64,000 nt of DNA from an uncultured Gemmatimonadales bacterium (GCA_963798845.1 CAWCUS010000002.1:1-64000), one strand, 5' to 3'; positions 1 through 10,972 are shown, counted from the first letter of the stretch. Numbers and translations: made by a program. The notes: generated by a model from the sequence alone, not told the origin.

Positions 1-49
1 GCTCGCGGCTGACCACCGGTTGCGGGCGTGGGAAGCCTGAGGCTTGGAA

Positions 50-68
50 TAGCATGGTATCCGTGCTA
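50..68. promoter_or_regulatory. Imperfect palindrome upstream of higB, putative HigA operator
   Basis: TAGCATGG-TAT-CCGTGCTA (one mismatch), ending 10 bp before the GTG start. Confidence 0.5.
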
Positions 69-78
69 ACATGTTCTT

Positions 79-372
79 GTGACCAGATCCTTCCGTGACA
101 AGGCGACGGAAGACCTCTTCAACGGGGTTGACTCGAAAGCTGTGCGGCAGCGGCTTCCGAGCGAGTTGTGGAGAAGCGGTCGGCGCGAGCTGGATGCGGT
201 CGATCAGGCGGAGGCGCTGGACGACCTACGAATCCCACCCGGGAAGCGACTCGAGCGTCTGAAAGGAAGCCGAGCCCGACAGCACAGCATACGGATCAAC
301 GATCAGTACAGGATCTGCTTCGTCTGGTCCGATCGCGGAGCGGACGACGTCGAAGTAGTTGATTATCGCTGA
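79..372 (+). CDS. higB: HigB/RelE-family toxin (plasmid maintenance system killer type)
   Basis: 97 aa; SFRDKATEDLF...DLRIPPGKRLERLKG...HSIRINDQYRICFVW...VEVVDY is typical HigB; toxin-first order. Confidence 0.9.
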   Translation: MTRSFRDKATEDLFNGVDSKAVRQRLPSELWRSGRRELDAVDQAEALDDLRIPPGKRLERLKGSRARQHSIRINDQYRICFVWSDRGADDVEVVDYR

Positions 373-374
373 GG

Positions 375-713
375 ATGCCTATGATACGCGTACCCACGGA
401 CCGAGCCCCTACCCACCCCGGGGAAATGCTTCTCGAGGAGTTCCTGAAGCCAATGGAGCTCACTCAGCGAGAGCTGGCGGATGCGATCGGAGTTCCGTAC
501 CAGCGAGTGAACGAGATCGTAAACGAGCGCCGTGGAGTCACGCCGAGCACGGCGCTGCGGCTCGCGCAGTTCTTTGGAACGACGAGCGAGTTCTGGCTCA
601 ACGGGCAGATGCGGTGGGACCTGTACCATGCGAAGGAAGCGGAGAAGCAAGAACTCGAACGCATTCCTCGGTATCGGCACCGCCGGTCCTCCGCGGAAAG
701 AGAATCGGCCTGA
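375..713 (+). CDS. higA: HigA-family HTH antitoxin
   Basis: PTHPGEMLLEEFLKPMELTQRELA...RVNEIVNERRGVTPSTALRLAQFFGTTSEFWLNGQ. Confidence 0.92.
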   Translation: MPMIRVPTDRAPTHPGEMLLEEFLKPMELTQRELADAIGVPYQRVNEIVNERRGVTPSTALRLAQFFGTTSEFWLNGQMRWDLYHAKEAEKQELERIPRYRHRRSSAERESA

Positions 714-899
714 CTCGAGGCACGGCCCCCGCGTTGGCCGTCCTCCGCCACCTCCTCGCCTGTCCCGACGACGCATGCGACGAGCCCGCCTCATCGAGCG
801 CCTCCGCGAGAAGCTCCGGATCCGGGAGCGCAGCAAGGAGATCGTCATGGCCTGGCTCTGCCACTTCCCGGCCCCGAGGTCGCTCCCGCCGCCGCCCAC

Positions 900-1091
900 A
901 TGACCGCCCGCCTCAAGGTCGAGGCCAAGACCGACACCGACGTGTCCCTCATCGCCGCGGAGGACCTGGTCCGGCTCGCCGAGCAGTGGACGGCGAGGAA
1001 GCCCGGGCAGCCGATCAACCTCGAGGTGTTCAACATCACCGGGGTGCTCGATCGGACGACGCTGGACGGGCGGATGAGGTTGTTCAGGTGA
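900..1091 (+). pseudogene. Probable C-terminal remnant of a larger unknown protein
   Basis: 63-aa protein-like ORF with host-like GC3 codon bias; upstream 730-900 looks like broken coding sequence; no clear RBS. Confidence 0.35.
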
Positions 1092-1237
1092 CGCTTCGGC
1101 TCTGCTGCCCGCGTTTGCGCCGTGATCGACGAGGCGCCCTGTGCCCGTCCAGCTATGGACGTGCCCCGCTCCGACGCCCATTCCTGGTCGCCCGGACGGA
1201 ACGCCCGGCTCGTCGAGCTCGGGGACGGGGAGGGGCC

Positions 1238-2273
1238 ATGCATCCGCGAGACGAGACGCCGACGCCCGCCGGAGACCCTCGCTGCGAACCCGGTGGTCGG
1301 GAAACGCCACGGACGCCCAGGCTGCTCGAGGAAGTTCGTAGAGCCTGCCGCGCGAGGCAGTACAGCGATCGGACGGCGGAAGCCTACACAGCATGGGTCC
1401 GCCGGTACGTGCTGTTCCACGGCAAGCGCCACCCGCGCGAGCTGGATGGTCAGGCCGTGGCCGCCTACCTCAGCCATCTCGCCGTCGAGCGCCGCGTCAG
1501 CGTAGCCACCCAGCGCCAGGCGTCGAGCGCGCTGCTGTTCCTGTACCGCGAAGTGCTGGGAACACCGATGCAGGCGCCAGAGGGAATCGCCCGCCCAGGA
1601 CGCCATCGCCGCCTGCCAACGGTGGTCTCACGCGACGAGGTCGCCGCCGTCCTCGCCGAAATGCGAGGCACCCCGGGCCTCGTGGCGCAGCTGCTCTATG
1701 GCTCCGGCCTCCGACTCATGGAGGCCCTCGACATCCGCCTCAAGGACATCTCCTTCGAGCGGGGCGAGATCGCGGTCCGCAGCGGCAAGGGTGGGCACGA
1801 CCGGATCACCATGCTCCCCCGCGCCATTCGAGCCCGAACTGCGGCGCCAGGTGAAGGATGTCCGCCTCCGCCACGAAGCCGACCTACGTGCTGGCGCCGG
1901 CTGGGTGGCCCTCCCCGACGCCCTCGCCCGGAAGATGCCGAACGCCGGACGGGATACCGCCTGGCAGTACCTCTTCCCCGCAACGCGACAGCACGTGCAC
2001 CGCGAAACGGGCCAGCGACGCCGTCACCACCTGCACGAAACGGCCGTCCAGCGCGACGTCTCCGCTGCCGGCCGCCGCGCCGGCATCGCGAAGCGAGTGA
2101 CCTGCCACACCCTGCGTCACTCCTTCGCCACGCACCTCCTCGAGGACCGCTACGACATCCGCACCATCCAGGAGCTCCTCGGCCACAAGGACGTCAAGAC
2201 GACGATGATCTATACGCATGTGCTCAACCGCGGCGCCGGGGGTGTGACGAGCCCGCTCGACCGCATGGGTTAG
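1238..2273 (+). CDS. intI: Integron integrase IntI (tyrosine recombinase), one +1 frameshift at ~1833-1835
   Basis: N-part [51 protein letters not shown]-part has IntI-specific insertion [32 protein letters not shown] and [34 protein letters not shown]; removing one C in GCCC joins them into about 344 aa; purine-rich RBS before ATG 1238. Confidence 0.95.
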
Positions 2274-2435
2274 GCTGCGCCAGGAGCGGCAATGGAGCGC
2301 GTCGACGGGAACCACGGCTTTAGCTGCCGGGTTCGCTGCGGAAGGCCCGGCCATAGAGGGGGTCGTTAGGCTGCCCGAGAACCATGCATAACCGCTGCAT
2401 AGCGAGCGGAGAGCAACCTTGCGGTTTCGGACTGG

Positions 2436-2472
2436 TTGGCTGAACCTGGGCGCAGTATAGAAAGCGTTAGGC
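2436..2472 (+). other. Putative attI site (crossover G|TTAGGC at 2466-2472)
   Basis: GTTAGGCAGAA 2466-2476 is the exact reverse complement of TTCTGCCTAAC 3460-3470 at attC1; no attC hairpin upstream of it; left boundary approximate. Confidence 0.75.
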
Positions 2473-2485
2473 AGAACAAGAACTC

Positions 2486-3455
2486 ATGGCATTGACAGAC
2501 GTGTTCTTTCGTAGGTATGGGCAGGTTCTCAGGCGCGGGCAGCCGTTGCCCGATAAGTACCTGACGTTGTTTAGACAGGCTGCCCATGTCGTAGGACAGG
2601 ACGTGTATCCCAATGTTCAGCTAGCAGAACAGTTCTTTCGAGGGATCCATGACAGAGATGGCTAGGGAAATGGCACTCCCTCGGCTCTCGACGCGAGGTT
2701 CTGAGACAGAGGCGGTAGTGCAGTTCCTGGTCGGCCGAAGCGACGTTGAACGGGAAATGTCACCGGACATCTACGTGAGAACCCGTCTATCGCTTCTGGA
2801 GATTGTGCTCGCGGAATCAGACGCGTTGATACAGCAAACAGAAGCCTCGTCGTCTAGCGCACCAAAAACACCAGGCCTGGTACCGCTACTTCCGGCCGGA
2901 GACGAAGAGCCATTCGTCTGGTCGAGCAACGTGCCAAGGCTTCGAAGCGCCATTCGGGAAATTAATGAGAGATTCAGGCTGAATGGCATTGGCTTCCGTT
3001 ATCATAACGGTGTAATTCAAGAGGCTCGAGACGATCTGGTCTCCGAAGTCATTGAAACACCGTTTTGGAACATGATTTCCGCTCGGAAGTGGGCGGTTGT
3101 AGAACATGACATGAAGGAAGCGCTTGATCGCCGGGACCGAGGGAAGTCGGATTCTACGTTTCATGCCCTGAAGGCGCTGGAAAGCGTCATCAAGATCATC
3201 TCGGATGAGAAGAACCTGACCACAGGAAGCGAGCGGGGTGCAAGTAATTACGTAGAGAATCTCGCAAGCAAACGTGGGCGGGGGCTCCTTGCAGATTGGG
3301 AAGCGGAACAACTCAAGCGCCTATTCTCGGTCATTCGTAACCCACAAGGTCATGGACCGGGCTCTGCAAAGCCGCTGGTGCTCAACGACCAGCAAACTGA
3401 TTTCGTGATCGAATCCGCAATGAGTTGGATCAAGAGCCTTGTGGGACGGCTGTGA
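2486..3455 (+). CDS. Cassette 1: AbiJ-like protein (AbiJ_NTD4-like N-terminus + C-terminal HEPN), +1 frameshift near 2650-2657
   Basis: ATG 2486 reads MALTDVFFRRY...FFRGIHD, then shifts into ORF 2649-3455; C-terminus KALESVIKII...IRNPQGHG contains an RxxxxH HEPN motif; GC clearly lower than host. Confidence 0.7.
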
Positions 3456-3463
3456 CGATTTCT

Positions 3464-3528
3464 GCCTAACGAGGGCGTGAACCTGACAGCGCGCTGCGCG
3501 CGCCGCAGGTTACGCCAGTGCGTTATAC
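3464..3528 (+). other. attC1 (65 bp)
   Basis: R'' GCCTAAC; L'' CGT(G)AACCTG pairs with L' CAGGTTACG leaving an extrahelical G; R' GTTATAC. Confidence 0.92.
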
Positions 3529-3707
3529 GCATGCTTCTTAGTTCGTCGGCAACTGAGCTGCCGTCGTGGGAGCGATCCGTGGCACTTCAGGCGCCCAGGC
3601 GGACCATCAACCGGCTCGGCGGGTGAGGCGAGGGGGGGCAGATCTCCGGGCGTGCCGGCCCTCACGATCTGCCTGCTTCGCATAGGACCGGAAGAGGGTG
3701 GTGATCA

Positions 3708-4133
3708 ATGGCTGGACCCAACGGACGCGACGACCTCAAGTTCCCGTTGGACGAGGCGTTCCACGATTGCTGCGGCCGGGAACGTCGGTTCCGGATCGAC
3801 TGCCTCGCGCACGAGGGCGGCTACTTCCTCCGAGCTCGTGAAAGCACGAAGGACGGGGCCGGCTACGAGTTCGCGGCGCACTCGGGAACGGCGGCGTATC
3901 TCGCCCTCGCCGCATTACGCGCAAAAATCCGGCGGGGTCTCTCCATTCGCTACTTGGCCGGTGAGGGAGAGCCCATCGGATTCAGCCACGGCACCGCACG
4001 CGGCTATATCGGTGACGGCGGTGTGGTGATCGACGGACGGCTCGTGGCGTTCGACGACCTTGCCCGACTGCTGCAAGAACACGAGGGATGGCAGCTGTGG
4101 TTGCGCGTCGCCGACCCCTACGAGGATCTCTGA
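3708..4133 (+). CDS. Cassette 2: hypothetical protein
   Basis: 141-aa protein-like ORF between attC1 and attC2; C-terminal VVIDGR..FDDLARLLQEHEGWQLWLRVAD; function not recognised. Confidence 0.75.
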   Translation: MAGPNGRDDLKFPLDEAFHDCCGRERRFRIDCLAHEGGYFLRARESTKDGAGYEFAAHSGTAAYLALAALRAKIRRGLSIRYLAGEGEPIGFSHGTARGYIGDGGVVIDGRLVAFDDLARLLQEHEGWQLWLRVADPYEDL

Positions 4134-4164
4134 CCACCGCATGTGCACGTGATCATCGCCCAGC

Positions 4165-4229
4165 GCATAACGGAGCGCTGAAGCTGACGGTCGCCTGCGG
4201 CGCCCGCAGCTTATCTCAGTGCGTTAGAA
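4165..4229 (+). other. attC2 (65 bp)
   Basis: GCATAAC..GCT(G)AAGCTG..CAGCTTATC..GTTAGAA. Confidence 0.9.
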
Positions 4230-4386
4230 CGCGAACCCCGATTGGGGTGTAGGAGAGCCAGGCGGTAGCGGGCCGCTGTACCGTCAAACGAAAGGCCGCA
4301 GTAGAATCGTGGATGCCATCTCTGGTGCGCTGACGGGCATACCTGGCCTGCGGCTGGACTGCACGAACGGAAGAGGAAGAGCTTGG

Positions 4387-4584
4387 ATGGAAGCGAAACA
4401 GACGGTGCGCGAGTTGCTCGACCGGCTGCCCGACGACAGCTCGCTGGATGACATCCTCTACCACCTCTACGTGGTTCAGGCGGTCAACCGCGGCTTGGCG
4501 GACGCCGATGCGGGACGAACCATATCGCACGAGGAGGTCGAGGAGCGTCTGCGCCGGAAATGGGTACTCGGCACCGAGCGGTAG
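4387..4584 (+). CDS. Cassette 3: putative antitoxin paired with ParE/RelE toxin
   Basis: MEAKQTVRELLDRLPDDSSLDDILYHLYVVQAVNRGLADADAGRTISHEEV; RBS-like AGAGGAAGA; overlaps toxin start. Confidence 0.8.
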   Translation: MEAKQTVRELLDRLPDDSSLDDILYHLYVVQAVNRGLADADAGRTISHEEVEERLRRKWVLGTER

Positions 4585-4877
4585 TCTGGACCGAGGCTGC
4601 GTCTGCTACGCTTGACGACGCGATCGCCTTCGTAGCTGAAGACTCGCCGTCAAACGCCGCGGCACTGCTGGAGCGAGTTCTCGATGCTGCCGCCTCGTTA
4701 TCGACTCTAAGCGATCGCGGCGCGCCCGTTCCTGAAATCAATGATCGGTCGGTGAGGCAGCTGCTACCCGGGCCGTATCGGCTGATCTACCGAGCCGAGG
4801 AGAATCAGGTCACCATACTGGCCGTTCTCCACCAACGAAGAGCTATCGATCTTTGGTCGCGGCGGCCGCAGGGTTGA
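4560..4877 (+). CDS. parE: Cassette 3: ParE/RelE-family toxin
   Basis: VVWTEAASATLDDAIAFVAEDSPSNAAALLERV..RGAPVPE..PYRLIYR..VTILAVLHQRR. Confidence 0.85.
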   Translation: MGTRHRAVVWTEAASATLDDAIAFVAEDSPSNAAALLERVLDAAASLSTLSDRGAPVPEINDRSVRQLLPGPYRLIYRAEENQVTILAVLHQRRAIDLWSRRPQG

Positions 4878-4887
4878 GCCGATCGCG

Positions 4888-5007
4888 TTCTAACGGGGAG
4901 ATGAAGCTGTCGGCTTGCTGGGCTGCTGTAGCTTCGCCCGTTGTTGCCGCTCCCAGGCTGTCCAGCTCCGCCCGGACGGGCCGCCGCTTATCTCCAGTGC
5001 GTTATGC
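4888..5007 (+). other. attC3 (120 bp)
   Basis: TCGCGTTCTAAC (4883-4894) is a perfect complement of cassette start GTTAGAACGCGA (4223); GAT(G)AAGC..GCTTATC; R' GTTATGC. Confidence 0.9.
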
Positions 5008-5043
5008 AGACCTGGGCACGGACAGCGGAGCCTCTGGAGGAAC

Positions 5044-5502
5044 CTATTCCCCGGATGCGCGCCTGGATTTGGCGGAGCGCTTGCTGGAGCTGCGGGGGCG
5101 GCCGCCTTTGAGGCCGTTCTTTCGGGCGGCCCTCGCCTTCGCTTCACTTCGAACCTGGCCCATAATCCGAGGAGCCCAGCCCCGCAGGTTCAGGGCATCG
5201 GTCACGAGGCCGGTGAGTGACGCTTCCACATCGATTTCATCCCAATGGAGGCCGTCTCCACTCGGAGAAATCCGCACGTTCGCAAGCTGCTCCTTCGTCG
5301 CGTCCCGGAGTCCAGGAACGCGCTCCGGAGGAAAGCCGAACGCGAAGCCGTTCCGGAGGTGCACGAGGATGAGGGCCTCGCTCTGATCGTACGTCGCAGA
5401 CGCAGCTCGAGGCTCTACCTGATCGGCTTCGCGAGCCGCTCGAATAGCCTCCTCGTTCTGTCGGTTGAACTCGGCATCAGTGATACCGGTGGACTTACCC
5501 AT
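5044..5502 (-). CDS. Cassette 4: DUF2442-type putative antitoxin
   Basis: PRAASATYD..ILVHLRNG..FPPERVPGL..SPSGDGLHWDEIDVEASL..SEAKARAARKNGLKGGRPR; ATG overlaps the upstream gene end. Confidence 0.8.
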   Translation of the reverse strand: MGKSTGITDAEFNRQNEEAIRAAREADQVEPRAASATYDQSEALILVHLRNGFAFGFPPERVPGLRDATKEQLANVRISPSGDGLHWDEIDVEASLTGLVTDALNLRGWAPRIMGQVRSEAKARAARKNGLKGGRPRSSSKRSAKSRRASGE

Positions 5503-5746
5503 GAAGCCTGCTCCATTCTGCGAGGAAGTGCTGCTGGTGCTGCCTGACGATCCTGAGGGCCTCCCGCGCGTCCGGGGCACTCATGTGGTGGTTCTGCCAG
5601 AGGGAGGGGCGAGTCTCGTCGTACCCCAAGCGAACGAGAACTTCTCCTCCGTTCACGGATTCCACGTGGACGTGCGGCGGCTCGTGCTCTCGCGGGGGAG
5701 AGTATACGTAGACCTTGAAGCGGCCGTCGTCGTGGATCTTGACCAT
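5495..5746 (-). CDS. Cassette 4: DUF4160-type putative toxin
   Basis: 83 aa; FKVYVYS..EHEPPHVHV..FLAEWSRLHG. Confidence 0.82.
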   Translation of the reverse strand: MVKIHDDGRFKVYVYSPPREHEPPHVHVESVNGGEVLVRLGYDETRPSLWQNHHMSAPDAREALRIVRQHQQHFLAEWSRLHG

Positions 5747-5785
5747 GCAGCAAGCTAAAACCCATCGCTAGGTTTGGGAAGTCGT

Positions 5786-5905
5786 GCATAACGAAGAGCT
5801 GAAGCTGACGGCAGGTGAGGCTGGCGTGGGTGCGCGCGGAGCTGTACAGAAGAAGCAGACGAACGGCGCGCGGAGGGGCCGCAGCTTAGCTCCGAGGCGT
5901 TATCC
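5786..5905 (+). other. attC4 (120 bp)
   Basis: GCATAAC..GCT(G)AAGCTG..CAGCTTAGC..GTTATCC. Confidence 0.9.
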
Positions 5906-6009
5906 CGCGGTATTGACTTGATCGCGGGGCTCTGGAAGGAGAGGCTTCGACTTGGCGGCATTGGTCACCTACATTCCAGAGCGAGCAGGCCTTCGAAGAC
6001 AGGTGGATC

Positions 6010-6240
6010 ATGCGCAACGAGTTTACGGCAGTGTACGAGCAGGATGGGGAGTGGATCGTTGCCTACTGCCCTGAGGTTCCGGGCGCCAACGGACAGGGTC
6101 GGACGAAGGAAGAAGCTCGACAGAGCCTCATCGAGGCCATCGAGCTCATCCTCGAGGACCGGCGGGAGGACGGGCTGCGGGGCATCCCGGCGGACGCTGA
6201 GCGGGAAACGATCACGGTTGGTGTCCGCGGTGCCGCCTGA
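6010..6240 (+). CDS. hicB: Cassette 5: short HicB-family antitoxin
   Basis: FTAVYEQDGEWIVAYCPEVPGANGQGRTKEEARQSLIEAIELILE. Confidence 0.88.
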   Translation: MRNEFTAVYEQDGEWIVAYCPEVPGANGQGRTKEEARQSLIEAIELILEDRREDGLRGIPADAERETITVGVRGAA

Positions 6241-6252
6241 GAGGGCGTCGGC

Positions 6253-6441
6253 GTGAAGCGGAATGCCCTGCTGAAGCATCTCCGACTCCACGGGTGCGTA
6301 CTCAAGCGGGAAGGACGATCTCACTCGCTCTGGCTGAATCCCTCTACTGGTGCGGTCGAAGCCGTTCCTCGGCACACTGAGATCTCGAACGTCCTGGCGG
6401 GGAAGATCTGCCGGAACTTGTCGATACCTGAAATCGGTTGA
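6253..6441 (+). CDS. hicA: Cassette 5: HicA-family toxin
   Basis: MKRNALLKHLRLHGCVLKREGRSHSLWLNP..VPRHTEI..KICRNL. Confidence 0.88.
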   Translation: MKRNALLKHLRLHGCVLKREGRSHSLWLNPSTGAVEAVPRHTEISNVLAGKICRNLSIPEIG

Positions 6442-6504
6442 GTGGTGCCTGCCTCTCTCCGTCCTGCAATCTGGGATTGAGCCCTTCATTCCTACGGACC
6501 CGCG

Positions 6505-6624
6505 GTATAACGATGAGATGAAGCTGGCGGCGTGTTGGTTCGCGTTGCATTGGCATGGAGAGGGGCAGACGTATCTGTAGCGCCGCGCCCGGATGGGCCG
6601 CAGCTTATCTCAGAGGCGTTGTCC
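6505..6624 (+). other. attC5 (120 bp)
   Basis: GTATAAC..GAT(G)AAGCTG..CAGCTTATC..GTTGTCC. Confidence 0.88.
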
Positions 6625-6660
6625 GGCACGGATCGGCCGGGGGCGTCGGCCTTGCGCAAC

Positions 6661-6696
6661 TTGATCGCGGTCGGCGTGCGTGATACATTGTAATAC
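6661..6696 (+). promoter_or_regulatory. Putative sigma70 promoter with overlapping operator; probably leaderless mRNA
   Basis: TTGATC-17 bp-TACATT ending 7 nt before ATG 6697; palindrome TACATTGTA 6684-6692; no RBS. Confidence 0.5.
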
Positions 6697-6918
6697 ATGA
6701 AAACTTCCGCCCTGACGATCCGCCTGGAGCCCGAGCTCAATCGGCAACTCGATCGCATGGCGAAGCAGTCCGGGCGTTCCCGGAGCGAGATCGCTCGTGA
6801 TGCGCTGAGGCGCCAGCTCGCGGTGCTTCAGTTCGAAGAGGCGCGCAAGCAAGTCCTGCCTTTCGCCGAAGCACGAGGGTACCTCACCGACGAGGATGTG
6901 TTCCGAGAAGTCTCTTGA
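6697..6918 (+). CDS. Cassette 6: CopG/RHH antitoxin
   Basis: LTIRLEPELNRQLDRMAKQSGRSRSEIARDALRR..AEARGYLTDEDVFREVS. Confidence 0.88.
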   Translation: MKTSALTIRLEPELNRQLDRMAKQSGRSRSEIARDALRRQLAVLQFEEARKQVLPFAEARGYLTDEDVFREVS

Positions 6919-7322
6919 AGGTCTTCCTGGACACGAACGTCCTGGTTGCCGCCTTCGCGACCCGGGGCCTCTGCGCGGACGTCCTCCGCACCACGCTTTC
7001 CGAACACGAGCTCGTCCTGGGCGAGGTCGTGCTCACCGAGTTCCGTCTCGTGCTCTCGAGCAAGCTCAAGCTGTCCGCGGACCGCATTCGCGCAGCTGAG
7101 GCCGTGTTCGAAGGGATTCCGCTGGTTCCGAAGCCCGAGCAGCCCAGTACGCTCGATATCAGATATCCTTCCGACCGGTGGATCCTGGCGAGCGCCGAGG
7201 CTGGCGGCGCCGAGATCCTCGTGACCGGAGACGAGGACCTCCTGGCGGTCGCCGGCGAATCGGTCATCCGTATTGCGAGCCCCCGCGCATTCTGGGAGCT
7301 GCTACGCACCGGTACGAGGTAA
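6915..7322 (+). CDS. Cassette 6: PIN-domain (VapC-like) toxin
   Basis: VFLDTNVLVAAF..E..DRWILASA..LVTGDEDLL; TTGA start/stop overlap. Confidence 0.9.
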   Translation: MKVFLDTNVLVAAFATRGLCADVLRTTLSEHELVLGEVVLTEFRLVLSSKLKLSADRIRAAEAVFEGIPLVPKPEQPSTLDIRYPSDRWILASAEAGGAEILVTGDEDLLAVAGESVIRIASPRAFWELLRTGTR

Positions 7323-7327
7323 GTGCG

Positions 7328-7417
7328 GGATAACGAGGGCGTGAAGCTGACGCGGATTGGCGGGTTGGCTTGTCCTCAGAACTACGGGCCGCGCAGCTAA
7401 CGCCCAGTGGGTCAGGC
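7328..7417 (+). other. attC6 (90 bp), degenerate R' core GTC
   Basis: GGATAAC..CGT(G)AAGCTG..CAGCTAACG..GTCAGGC. Confidence 0.8.
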
Positions 7418-7464
7418 CACCTCCAACCTTTCAGGAACTGGCGGGCTCTCGGGCATCGTGTTAC

Positions 7465-7476
7465 GTTACATGTAAC
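7465..7476. promoter_or_regulatory. Perfect palindrome, putative operator of the MazEF-like module
   Basis: GTTACATGTAAC, just upstream of RBS GGAGG 7485-7489. Confidence 0.55.
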
Positions 7477-7494
7477 ACGTGCATGGAGGCCGTG

Positions 7495-7719
7495 GTGTCA
7501 GATTCGGACCGAAAGAAGTCCGTCCGCGAGAGGGTCCGCGCTCATCGCAGACGCCTGCGGCGGCAGGGGTTGCGCCCTATCCAGATCTGGGTTCCGGATG
7601 TCCGCTCCGAGAGCTTCCGCGCGGAAGCGCACCGGCAGTCGCTCGCCGCGGCCGAGAGTTCGCATGCGGACCGGGACCAGGAATTCGTGGACACGGTTTC
7701 CGAGTTCGACGACGAGTGA
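7495..7719 (+). CDS. Cassette 7: MazE-like (DUF3018-type) antitoxin
   Basis: RERVRAHRRRLRRQGLRPIQIWVPDVRSESFRAEAHRQS; GTG start after GGAGG (7492 also possible). Confidence 0.85.
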   Translation: MSDSDRKKSVRERVRAHRRRLRRQGLRPIQIWVPDVRSESFRAEAHRQSLAAAESSHADRDQEFVDTVSEFDDE

Positions 7720-8063
7720 GGCGCGGCGAGATCTGGACGGTTTCGGGCGGCAGTGCTTACGCCGGGAAGCCTCGACCTGCGGTCGTCGTCCAGGACGACA
7801 GCTTCGACGCCACGGCCTCGATCACGCTCTGCGTCTTCACCACCGATCCCACGGAGGCGCCTCTATTTCGGATCCTTCTCGAGCCGAACGACCGGAATGG
7901 ACTGCACGAGCGTAGCAGCATCATGGTCGACAAGATCACTACGGTCTCCAAGACGAAGCTAGGGCAGCGAATCGGAAGACTCGATGACGAAGATCTTGTT
8001 CGCCTCAACCAGGCGATCCTCGTATTCCTCGGGTTGGCGGGACCTGCTCGGTCGCCGGAGTAA
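7716..8063 (+). CDS. mazF: Cassette 7: PemK/MazF-family toxin
   Basis: MRRGEIWTV..YAGKPRPAVVVQDD..IMVDKITTV..IGRL..ILVFLGL; GTGA overlap. Confidence 0.9.
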   Translation: MRRGEIWTVSGGSAYAGKPRPAVVVQDDSFDATASITLCVFTTDPTEAPLFRILLEPNDRNGLHERSSIMVDKITTVSKTKLGQRIGRLDDEDLVRLNQAILVFLGLAGPARSPE

Positions 8064-8106
8064 CGCCGATCTCTCTCTGTTTTGGTACGCCTGCCGGGCC
8101 TCGGTG

Positions 8107-8197
8107 GCCTAACGAGGGCGGTGAAGCTGACGCGGGTCAACGGGTAGGCGTTTCCTCGGCGGCTGGGGCCACGCAGCTTACCGCCAGGGCGTTAGAA
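8107..8197 (+). other. attC7 (91 bp)
   Basis: GCCTAAC..GGT(G)AAGCTG..CAGCTTACC..GTTAGAA. Confidence 0.88.
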
Positions 8198-8308
8198 AGC
8201 GCGAGAAGTGCCCTCTTCGGTCTCCTCCGCGATGACAGTGGATCCTTCGGTGAGGCCGAAGCGACGGCGCAAGGTAGCAGGAATCACGAAGGTACCGCGC
8301 TTCCCCAC
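8192..8308 (-). pseudogene. Truncated AbrB/MazE/SpoVT-type antitoxin fragment
   Basis: Manual translation VGKRGTFVIPATLRRRFGLTEGSTVIAEETEEGTSRAF*; below the ORF-track cutoff; stop codon lies in the attC7 R' core. Confidence 0.65.
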
Positions 8309-8454
8309 TGCGCGCTGCCCATTGATGGTAAATGCAATTACACGCGTGCCAACGGCAGCGAGCCGCCGGGGATCGACTGGTTTGACGCCACCCGGCTGCT
8401 TCGCCCATCATTCGACCAGAGACGACTGCCCCGTCCCGCGCACCCGAAGCCCCC

Positions 8455-10972
8455 ATGCGCCCAGAAGACCTCCGCCCCCGCCAGGCCCTCTCCGCCTGGT
8501 CGGATGAGCAGCTCGACGCGGCGATCGCCCGCGAGTTCACCCTCATCGGCCAGCGCCTGACCCGCGTCAATGCCGCCGCCAAGGCCACCGGCCGCGCGGC
8601 GTACACCGACGACCTCGCCCTGCCGGGGATGCTGCACGGGAAGATCCTGCGCTCGCCCCACGCGCACGCGCGGATCCTCTCCATCGACACGGGCGACGCG
8701 GAAGCGATGGAGGGGGTGTACGCGGTGATCACGGGGAAGGACCTGCCCACGGAGTACTGCATCATCCCCTGGACGCGCGACGAGACGGCCCTCGCCGTGG
8801 ACCGGGTGCGCTTCATCGGGGACGCGGTGGCGGCGGTCGCCGCGGTCGATGAGGACACCGCGATCAAGGCTTGCGACGCCATCCGCGTGCTGTACGAGCC
8901 GCTCCCGGCCTTCTTCGACCCCCGGGACGCGCTGGACCCGCCGGCGGACTCGACGCCCATCCACGAGCCGAAGAAGGAGGGGCACAACGGCAACATCACG
9001 AAGATCGTGAAGCTGTCGTTCGGGGACGTGGACGCGGAGCTGGCGGGGAGCGACGTCGTCGTCGAGGGGGACTACTACTTCGAGGGGACCACGCACGCGC
9101 CCATCGAGCCGCACTGCGCCATCGGGTACGCGGACCCCGGGGGGAAGCTGACGGTGTGGTCGTCCACGCAGGTGCCGCACTACCTGCACCGGGAGCTGGC
9201 GCGGGTGCTGGACCTGGACGTGGCGAGGGTGCGCGTGGTGCAGCCGGCGGTGGGCGGCGCGTTCGGCGGGAAGAGCGAGCCGTTCGACCTGGAGTTCTGC
9301 GTCGCCGAGCTGGCGCGGCGGACGGGGCGGCCGGTGAAGATCCTGTACACGCGGGAGGAGGTCTTCTACTCCCACCGCGGGCGCCACCCCATGCGCATGA
9401 AGTGCAGGCTGGGCGCGGACGTTGACGGCCATATCAAGGCCGTGGACCACGACATCGTGCTGGACGGCGGGGCGTACGCGTCGTTCGGGCTGGTGACCAC
9501 GTACTACTCCGGCCAGCTGCTGCCGGCGCCGTACGAGTTCGGCTCCTACCGCTTCCACAGTGTGCGTGCGTACACGAACAAGCCGCCGTGCGGGCCCAAG
9601 CGGGGGCACGGCAGCGTGCAGCCGCGCTTCGCGTTCGAAGTCCAGCTCGACCGCCTCGCCCGCGCGCTGGAGCTGGACCCCATTCGAGCTCCGGCGCCGC
9701 AACTTCATGGGCACGGGGCGCACCATCAACGAGCTGCGCGTGCAGTCCAACGGCTTCCTCCAGTGCCTGGACGCGGTGGAAGCCGCGAGCGGGTGGAAGG
9801 AGCGGTGGGGGAAGCTGCCGCGCGGGCGCGGGCTCGGCGTCGCCGGCTCGTGCTACATCAGCGGCACCAACTACCCGATCTACCCGAACGACATGCCCCA
9901 GTCCGCCATCCAGATGGCCGTGGAGCGGAGCGGGCGGGTGACGGTGTGGACGGGGGCGAGCGAGATCGGGCAGGGGAGCGACAGCGTGGTCGCGCTCATC
10001 GCCGCCGAGGAGCTGGGCGTGCCGCTGGACTACGTGCGCGTGGTGGCCAGCGACACGGACCAGGTGCCCGTGGACCTGGGCGCCTACTCGTCGCGCGAGA
10101 CGTTCATGGTGGGCAACGCCGCCGTCCACGCCGCGAAGCAGATCCGGGAGCGGGTATGCGGCGCCGTGGCGGGCGCGTGGGACGTCGCCCCCGACCGCGT
10201 GGGCCTGGCCGGCGGCTGGGCGTTCGACGTCCGGGACACCGCCCGCCGCATGCCCATCTCCGAAGCGTTCAACCTGGCCGAGGCGAAGCACGGCACGCTG
10301 GGCGCCGTGGGGCACTACGACACGCCCAAGGACGTGCACGGCGACTACCGCGGCGGCACCATCGGCGCGTCACCCGCCTACTCCTTCACCGCCCACGTCG
10401 CCGAAGTGGAAGTGGACGAGGAGACGGGCGTCGTCACGGTGAAGAGCATCTGGGCCGCCCACGACTGCGGCCGCGCGCTCAACCCCGTGCTGGTGGAGGG
10501 GCAGATCGAGGGGAGCGTGTACATGGGCTACGCCGAAGCGCTCATGGAGGAGCAGGTCTTCAAGTCGGGCGACGAGGGGAAGGCCGGCCTCCACAACTGC
10601 CCGTCGCTGCTCGACTACCGCATGCCCACGTCCATGGACACCCCGGACATCCAGGCGCTCATCGTCGAGTCCGTCGACCCCGAGGGGCCGTACGGCGCCA
10701 AGGAAGCGGGCGAGGGGCCGCTGCACCCGTCGATTCCGGCCATCGCCAACGCCATCTACGACGCGGTGGGCGTGCGGCTCGACTCCCTGCCGTTCTCACC
10801 GCCCCGGGTGTGGCGGGCCATCCGGGCGGCGAAGGGGGAGGCGTTCGAGGATGGCGGCGGTCCGAGCGCCACGTCGCAGCCGCGGAACGAGCGGGAAGGG
10901 GAGTCGCCCACCAGCGCGCGGCCGCGGGCGTATGCTACCACCCCAGGCGGTGGCCGACCGGGCAAGGGGTGA
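8455..10972 (+). CDS. Xanthine dehydrogenase-family molybdopterin subunit (HcrA-like), +1 frameshift at ~9683
   Basis: LHGKILRSPHAHARI, HAPIEPH, VGGAFGGK, GPKRGHG, EIGQGS, DLGAYSSR, EGQIEG, GAKEAGE across ORFs 8455 and 9560. Confidence 0.88.

Follow-up and report, generated by a model that had tools for sequence, protein, structure and literature searches.

The name 'inverted integron-integrase', applied to integrons whose integrase gene intI has the same orientation as the gene cassettes, is said to originate with Boucher et al. in 2007. The closest described systems are those of the Treponema denticola type, chromosomal integrons in which transcription of intI runs toward the attI site and follows the cassettes' direction (PMC4889954, PMC3607928). 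This co-oriented layout is described for Treponema (PMC3607928), and Cury et al. (2016; PMC4889954) name an 'inverted integron-integrase group' and report it as paraphyletic. A second system for comparison is the superintegron of Vibrio cholerae, which is sedentary and chromosomal and carries interspersed toxin-antitoxin (TA) cassettes, some of them inverted (PMC13108822). Gemmatimonadota already figure among the phyla with integrons (PMC8618304), and no paper listed in a literature search on the subject treats such an element in detail. Here we describe positions 1238-8197 of a 64,000-nucleotide stretch of DNA (the window) from an uncultured Gemmatimonadales bacterium (GCA_963798845.1, CAWCUS010000002.1:1-64000). 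The window makes up the initial 64 kb of contig C2 in a genome (G000) of 4.26 Mb, six contigs and approximately 70.5% GC. With a probability of about 0.85, we take the region to be an integron of the sedentary chromosomal kind whose layout is co-oriented ('inverted integron-integrase'). Much of the evidence comes from comparison with a congener, the same-genus genome G001, which has two integron platforms.

The locus shares with the Treponema type its chromosomal position and the direction of its integrase gene. A search with the C-terminal half of IntI gave 567 relatives among 599 pattern matches, and the best 80 of these 567 loci were examined; Treponema metagenome-assembled genomes (MAGs) are among them at 58-60% identity. 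The top two of the 80 are MAGs labelled Gemmatimonadales (72%) and Longimicrobiales (69%), in keeping with the probable Gemmatimonadota lineage proposed in a first-pass annotation made from the sequence alone. Unlike the Treponema systems, the element resides in a Gemmatimonadota host of approximately 70% GC, and R1, a covariance model built from the seven attC sites of the window, found no sites in the four Treponema loci among the 80, which may be only an effect of the model. The likeness to V. cholerae lies in the sedentary, chromosomal character, in the interspersed TA-like cassettes, one with its genes inverted, in an integrase aligning to VchIntIA over its whole length, and in the probable location of the attC bottom strands on the leading-strand template, as indicated by the positive GC skew of the plus strand over the first 180 kb of contig C2 (0.003-0.097 per 20 kb). 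In contrast to V. cholerae, where intI is divergent from the array and 19 of 179 cassettes are TA (PMC13108822), intI is co-oriented here, there are seven cassettes, five of them TA-like, and the first extrahelical base of the bottom strand is C instead of G. The parts of the element are as follows; bit scores of attC sites refer to R1, and the slash in sequence motifs marks the crossover or cleavage point.

1238-2273, plus strand: intI, integron integrase, 344 aa if read through a frame break (TIGR02249 profile in two frames, alignment to VchIntIA)
2274-2466, plus strand: attI region; the crossover falls between G2466 and T2467, the point to which three platforms can be aligned
2467-3522, plus strand: cassette 1, AbiJ_NTD4/HEPN-like, open reading frame (ORF) 2649-3455, probably with its N-terminus in ORF 2486-2665; attC1 3464-3528, 63 bits
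3523-4223, plus strand: cassette 2, DUF7686 + DUF7713 protein (3708-4133; Pfam); attC2 4165-4229, 58.6 bits
4224-5001, plus strand: cassette 3, small ORF without family match (4309-4584) and ParE toxin (4560-4877; Pfam ParE_toxin, 58.2 bits); attC3 4888-5007, 85.9 bits
5002-5899, genes on the minus strand, site on the plus strand: cassette 4, DUF4160 (5495-5746) and DUF2442 (5044-5580) proteins (Pfam, 44.5 and 54.6 bits); attC4 5786-5905, 84.3 bits
5900-6618, plus strand: cassette 5, HicB-like (6010-6240) and HicA-like (6253-6441) proteins (Pfam UPF0150 23.1 and HicA_toxin 22.6 bits, both below cut-offs); attC5 6505-6624, 83.5 bits
6619-7411, plus strand: cassette 6, RHH antitoxin (6697-6918) and PIN toxin (6915-7322; Pfam RHH_1 38 and PIN 43.4 bits); attC6 7328-7417, 82.1 bits
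7412-8197, plus strand: cassette 7, MazE-like antitoxin (~7483-7719) and PemK/MazF toxin (7716-8063; Pfam MazE-like 80.6 and PemK_toxin 75.7 bits); attC7 8107-8197, 83.2 bits; end of the array

The two frames of intI (1238-~1826 and 1827-2273) match TIGR02249 (NCBIfam) at profile positions 1-167 (196.7 bits) and 169-315 (218.5 bits), respectively. The halves, like the ORFs of cassette 1, were searched separately and unjoined, while the cut-off of this family, 265 bits, is set for the whole protein. The gene ends at 2273, as initially annotated, and intI is the sole good match to the profile in the genome, the next-best one scoring 109.8 bits. The halves align to residues 6-169 and 175-320 of VchIntIA (2a3v); the alignment spans the insertion specific for IntI and absent from Xer enzymes, as well as the HxxR, H and Y motifs. 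Motifs aligned with 2a3v include GSGLRLME and GKGG in the first half and IYTHV in the second one.

All seven attC sites (65, 65, 120, 120, 120, 90 and 91 nt, in order) have the form TAACG...GTGAAGCTGAC...CGCAGCTTA...GCGTTA around loops of varying length. In the shared hairpin, with the structure written by hand from DNA folds, 92.4% of cells are paired, compared with 24-38% after sliding of the partners; compensatory change is seen in five pairs, and none of 500 shuffles attained the observed score. The R'' core is AAC in all seven sites and the R' core is GTT in six; that of attC6 is GTC, because cassette 7 starts with TC and not TT. On the plus strand, the 5' arm of every site has two bulges separated by 6 bp, and the unpaired spacer is 3 nt on one arm versus 4-5 nt on the other. 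The R1 scores of the seven sites, 58.6-85.9 bits on the plus strand, are matches by construction; on the minus strand the same sites score at most 11.8 bits, and elsewhere in the window, with filters off, R1 does not exceed 13.6 bits. Among the 150 of 5721 first-look candidates that were scored genome-wide with R1, there was no further attC site and no second array, including at contig ends. Independent support comes from related intI genes, beside which R1 also finds arrays. A scan of positions 1-9000 against Rfam (E up to 0.1) yielded no matches and is uninformative, since Rfam holds no attC family.

The left border of the array was fixed by comparison of platforms. The one in the window and both in G001 are alignable to GCGCAGTATAGAxxGCG/TTA and then diverge, each having a different first cassette, which places the attI crossover at 2466/2467, 193 bp past the end of intI on the same strand; the first-pass annotation had estimated this distance at about 190 bp. 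No attC-like fold was found by R1 to the left of 2467 (the segment 2391-2478 scores 10.4 bits, E = 1), and R1 detected no attC in 1-1237. The arrangement named in that annotation as fatal to its reading, with the true attI lying 5' of intI and the array outside the window, is thus contradicted both by this absence and by the end of platform homology at 2466/2467. The G/TT crossovers lie at 2466/2467, 3522/3523, 4223/4224, 5001/5002, 5899/5900, 6618/6619, 7411/7412 and 8191/8192, and the cassette borders given in the first-pass annotation are identical to them to the base. At 9-12 of 12 bases, every cassette head can pair with the sequence flanking the R'' box of the attC that belongs to it. 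With the common GTTA set aside, own pairs agree in 6.9 of 10 bases and the 42 cross pairs in 3.4 of 10; of 5040 permutations, the true pairing alone attains the observed sum. The footprint of circular-cassette integration that had been noted in this complementarity is therefore present in all seven cassettes; being symmetrical, it demonstrates cassette structure and carries no information on polarity.

Polarity and co-orientation follow instead from the arm carrying the bulges, the strands of the genes, the distribution of attC sites (none to the left of 2467, one closing the array at 8197) and the comparison with G001. Extrahelical bases lie by definition on the R''-L'' arm (PMC2727003); as the bulges are on the 5' arm of the plus strand, this arm must be R''-L'', and the plus strand is the top one. 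By their coordinates, the ORFs of six of the seven cassettes lie on the plus strand and stop 8-63 nt short of the attC. The strand of the attC sites, the profile match of the integrase and the comparison of platforms agree that intI is co-oriented with the array, as originally proposed. The parts of the element, the polarity of its sites and both borders of the array are established. Three direct copies of GTTAGGC(T/A)G were observed approximately 100 bp apart at 2267-2278, 2363-2374 and 2464-2474; the first one overlaps the stop codon of intI, the third one is the attI crossover, and the copies are partly conserved in the two G001 platforms. That they are binding sites of the integrase is a guess. 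A TATAGA box just 5' of the crossover, conserved in the three platforms, is only a candidate promoter.

One G001 platform (on C1) is at the syntenic locus, and the other one is on C6. Homology to G001 C1 resumes at 8203, 6 nt past attC7; the tract 8203-10932 is 97.5% identical, collinear matches continue to 64 kb, and the backbone at 12-64 kb (12092-63998) is 69.5-86% identical. The intI gene is 89-90% identical to its G001 copies. Four cassettes of the window recur in the congener in another order: cassette 2 (99.4% identity) is the first cassette of the C6 array, directly following attI without attC1, with cassette 4 (99.6%) next to it, while cassettes 3 and 5 (97.9% each) are in the C1 array. 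The contrast between 97.9-99.6% identity of reordered cassettes and 69.5-86% identity of the backbone argues for recent cassette traffic; whole cassettes bounded by G/TT thus moved or were exchanged well after the split of the species. The 8203-10932 tract looks like part of a recombination tract taking in the edge of the integron, and may have travelled together with the array by homologous recombination. Examination of arrays at this locus in related genomes had been suggested as a check, and the comparison with G001 fixes the attI crossover, the polarity and the end of the array at 8197. The G001 array at the same locus is approximately 13 kb long, including IS21 copies.

Several features of the G001 platforms were observed besides. 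Three IS21-type IstA/IstB pairs are located inside the C1 array (L107, 2128-10316), and one of them parts the body of the cassette 5 homologue from its attC. Upstream of intI, each of the two G001 platforms has an attC oriented as in the array (L108, 6196-6273, minus strand; L115, 2739-2816, minus strand), with a gene before and a dihydrofolate-reductase-like gene after it; the surrounding 2060 bp show 99.4% identity between the platforms.

The chromosomal setting indicated by the first-pass annotation is borne out by the right flank, which is syntenic with the same-genus genome and in which the 34 ORFs scanned in 10997-63819 are housekeeping genes, including GcpE/IspG, GlgE and GlgB-type ones. 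No transposase was found among these ORFs, nor had one been visible earlier.

As assembled, intI is not a single open frame, so the initial description of the integron as complete has to be qualified. The gene contains a +1 shift, one extra T at 1827/1828 in CCATTCGAGC; frame 0 runs to ...ITMLPRAI, and frame +1 carries on. In both G001 copies of intI the TT at 1827/8 is a single T, and a 555-nt metagenome contig, approximately 93% identical, likewise has no extra T. Beside the array, the gene for the large subunit of a molybdopterin dehydrogenase (8455-10972) has an extra T at 9683, in the same 10-mer CCATTCGAGC (9680-9689), and its 97.5% identical G001 copy does not. In the stretches more than 90% identical to G001 this is, besides intI, the sole frame-breaking difference found. 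Genome-wide, among sites flanked on either side by a clear third-position GC phase, a +1 phase change was observed at 6 of 33 CATTCGAG sites versus 16 of 769 CATCGAG sites (Fisher p = 1.4e-4). Five phase-changing CATTCGAG sites were tested by Pfam on both frames. One, in a DUF1028 gene, showed no gene split, and at each of the other four a single gene is divided precisely at the motif:

split at CATTCGAG: gene with MoCoBD_1 in one frame and MoCoBD_2 in the other (Pfam on two frames)
split at CATTCGAG: TonB-dependent receptor, profile positions 98-323 and 328-436 (G000 C6:189832, L119)
split at CATTCGAG: chemotaxis receptor, CHASE3-HAMP and MCPsignal (G000 C6:969478, L120)
split at CATTCGAG: Wzz-type tyrosine kinase, Wzz and GNVR-AAA_31 (G000 C2:795925, L121)

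Identical insertions recurring in unrelated genes indicate a systematic error of the consensus. The break in intI is probably, at about two to one, such an error, the gene being intact in the cell; the pattern suggests that the G000 assembly errs recurrently at CATCGAG, and a modified base in long reads is our guess as to the cause. This argument rests on the gene-level split test and on the comparison with the congener, because the 7-mer scan is dominated by stop-codon words.

The same parts could be given other readings. Hairpins after genes are common, and no Rfam family is available here, so the repeats might be taken for ordinary intergenic palindromes, REP-like or terminators, standing next to a Xer-type recombinase. 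This is hardly credible: the IntI-specific insertion is present, TIGR02249 scores 197 and 218 bits while the XerC and XerD models reach only 54 and 84, the repeats are absent elsewhere in the 4.26 Mb genome within the scope of the R1 search, R1 finds the same sites beside related intI genes in other phyla, and whole units transfer between genomes at G/TT borders. If the elements belong to an integron, its polarity could still be the reverse, with the minus strand on top, the true attI and any working integrase beyond 8197 on the right or outside the contig, and 1238-2273 not coding for the co-oriented integrase of this array. The complementarity of heads and flanks suits either polarity, and at the bulge closest to the R box the plus strand has G, the base usual on the recombining strand (PMC2727003). 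Reversal is nevertheless very improbable, as bulges on the 5' arm of the plus strand belong to R''-L'' only if this strand is the top one, the units shared with the congener start at the G/TT to the right of each attC, with cassette 2 joined to attI without attC1, and the array is closed at 8197 by a complete attC followed by conserved chromosome. Moreover, genes of six of the seven cassettes would be antisense, and neither the genome-wide profile search nor the scan of ORFs in 10997-63819 revealed an integrase-like gene to the right of the array.

A more serious alternative, though one we consider rather unlikely, retains the integron and takes intI for a true pseudogene. The platform would then be dead and the array frozen, the survivors being mainly TA cassettes that kill the cells deleting them. 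The intI frame is indeed broken in the assembly, attC6 has a mutated R' (GTC), one HigBA cassette lacks its attC, and the TA-like character of five of the seven cassettes is consistent with survival by addiction, an idea for which there is a basis in V. cholerae (PMC13108822). Both congener copies of intI have independent lesions, different from that in the window: an 84-bp in-frame deletion in both and a sequence of approximately 5 kb, of IS21 type, splitting the gene of the C1 platform; integrase decay thus does occur in the genus. Against this stands the identical extra T in an identical 10-mer that breaks the neighboring housekeeping-type gene, together with three further unrelated genes broken at CATTCGAG, a set for which independent real mutations are unlikely. 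In addition, the catalytic and IntI-specific motifs are all intact on either side of the break, and the 98-99.6% identity of cassettes, compared with approximately 80% in the backbone, implies fairly recent recombination. Our preferred reading, a co-oriented integron with an integrase gene probably misassembled at one base, has its own difficulties, to which the congener lesions just described also belong. Few CATCGAG sites are affected (1607 CATCGAG and 90 CATTCGAG sites genome-wide); the unbiased 7-mer scan at +1 changes is confounded by gene borders, with CATTCGA ninth behind stop-codon words; and the break is covered solely by the contig of a 93% identical relative, so that a real frameshift is possible. 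Three public runs with small shares (0.05-0.13) contained only contigs of relatives, of 88-99% likeness. It also weighs against this reading that the contig begins 1237 bp 5' of intI, which limits the left context; that R1 was derived from the very sites it supports; that the R' of attC6, GTCAGGC, should hamper recombination where cassettes 6 and 7 join; and that in a promoter and terminator scan of 1-8600 the stretch from intI to cassette 1 had no promoter-like site, totals being no higher than in shuffles. The array is small for the sedentary type, seven cassettes instead of the tens expected, and its attC sites have conserved stems but variable loops, at 58% mean column identity.

The cassettes have a GC content of 54.5-65.3% (54.5% in cassette 1), compared with 70.7% in the backbone. 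Judging from domain matches, cassette 1 looks like an AbiJ/HEPN defence gene, and five of the seven cassettes (3-7) resemble two-gene type II TA modules. The match of the cassette 1 protein to Pfam AbiJ_NTD4 (33.8 bits) is near the cut-off of 34, and an RxxxxH motif is present near its end; the nearest Atlas clusters (scores 0.95-0.97) carry AbiJ_NTD4 and Abi_C. Since proteins of these clusters are 282-341 aa long, the two ORFs of cassette 1 probably constitute one AbiJ-like gene of approximately 320 aa. These ORFs overlap in frames differing by +1 near CTTTCGAGG (~2637-2645), where the overlap may reflect another extra T before TCGAG. The DUF4160 and DUF2442 genes of cassette 4 form what we take to be a TA system. 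The PIN toxin of cassette 6 also matches NCBIfam TIGR00305 above the cut-off (35.9 bits), and start and stop of the two genes of cassette 7 overlap in GTGA. PADLOC, applied to 16 proteins of the region, gave weak matches only (E 0.00036-0.0069), by which no defence system could be named.

One more cassette-derived feature lies on the other side of intI:

79-713, plus strand: HigBA remnant, higB (79-372) and higA (375-713), without attC (Pfam HigB-like_toxin 64.4 bits, NCBIfam HigA 107.9 bits)

Positions 44-709 of the window are 84% identical to a HigBA cassette located between two attC sites in the G001 array, and the homology ends at the start of the R'' box of that cassette. Because the cassette sequence is kept up to the R'' box and then diverges, the HigBA region 5' of intI, at 44-760, is identified by alignment as a cassette remnant that has no attC. 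The G001 arrays contain HigBA, ParE, HicAB and Fic/Doc genes. Arrays of other relatives are also rich in TA pairs: L016 has HicA, HigBA, two DUF433/DUF5615 pairs, BrnT and a HEPN protein, and HigBA cassettes are found both there and in L094.

The mechanism proposed here is carried over from the established integron model, and by this analogy we infer both the catalytic steps and the role of the TA pairs. IntI would bind the folded bottom (minus) strand of each attC and cut at AA/C of the R' box, corresponding to G/TT on the plus strand. Recombination between two attC sites would excise a cassette as a circle, and recombination of attC with attI would insert it at 2466/2467. The TA modules, likely having their own promoters, could stabilise the array, as described for V. 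cholerae, where promoter-bearing TA cassettes do so through the death of cells from which cassettes are lost (PMC13108822).

The attC sites differ from the textbook form at the bulge closest to the R box, which is G on the top strand in all seven, hence C on the recombining one. Bouvier et al. (PMC2727003) call a bottom-strand G at the first extrahelical base absolutely conserved and the determinant of strand choice; a change from G to C at this base lowers recombination by IntI1 only 2.7-fold (PMC2727003). Across 27 related loci with 96 R1 matches, this column holds G 80 times, C 13 times, T twice and A once, which is only a lead, as R1 favors G. A speculative proposal, to which we assign a low probability, is that the attC sites described here, together with those of many arrays that accompany related co-oriented integrases from several phyla, make up a distinct class with C as the first extrahelical base of the recombining strand, and would have a site grammar of their own if these integrases read the base differently; a partly separate pool of TA and defence cassettes would then circulate among Gemmatimonadales species.

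Co-orientation had initially been presented as a rarity. This was overstated, since the layout is named in the literature and is the rule among the IntI relatives: in 26 of the best 80 loci R1 made 88 matches, of which 87 are downstream of intI on its strand, and 25 of these 26 loci are co-oriented, the exception, L091, having its match upstream on the other strand. Short flanks or other types of attC may account for the 54 loci without an R1 match. At E up to 1e-40, TIGR02249 matches were found in 9 of 24 other genomes of the same family and, for two further families of the order, in 1 of 16; leaving out the unpublished genomes G016, G017, G020 and G026 gives 6 of 21 and 0 of 15, respectively. 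In L043, a 2.1-kb Gemmatimonadota contig (1-312, 1449-1880), a homologue of the dehydrogenase C-terminus (78%) was observed upstream of intI on the same strand, an order unlike that of the window; the contig is too short to interpret.

The integron is real, well delimited and of a known kind, and it leaves the current picture of integrons unchanged. An apparent integrase pseudogene that is probably a recurrent assembly error calls for caution in counts of 'decayed' integrons in long-read MAGs, and C in place of G at the strand-selecting bulge is a simple, testable question for integron biochemistry. For a little-studied soil phylum, the element provides a cleanly delimited and fully readable co-oriented chromosomal integron, with both borders fixed through a congener and with direct evidence of recent movement of whole cassettes between species. 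The arrays of this integron family are dominated by cassettes of TA and defence type.

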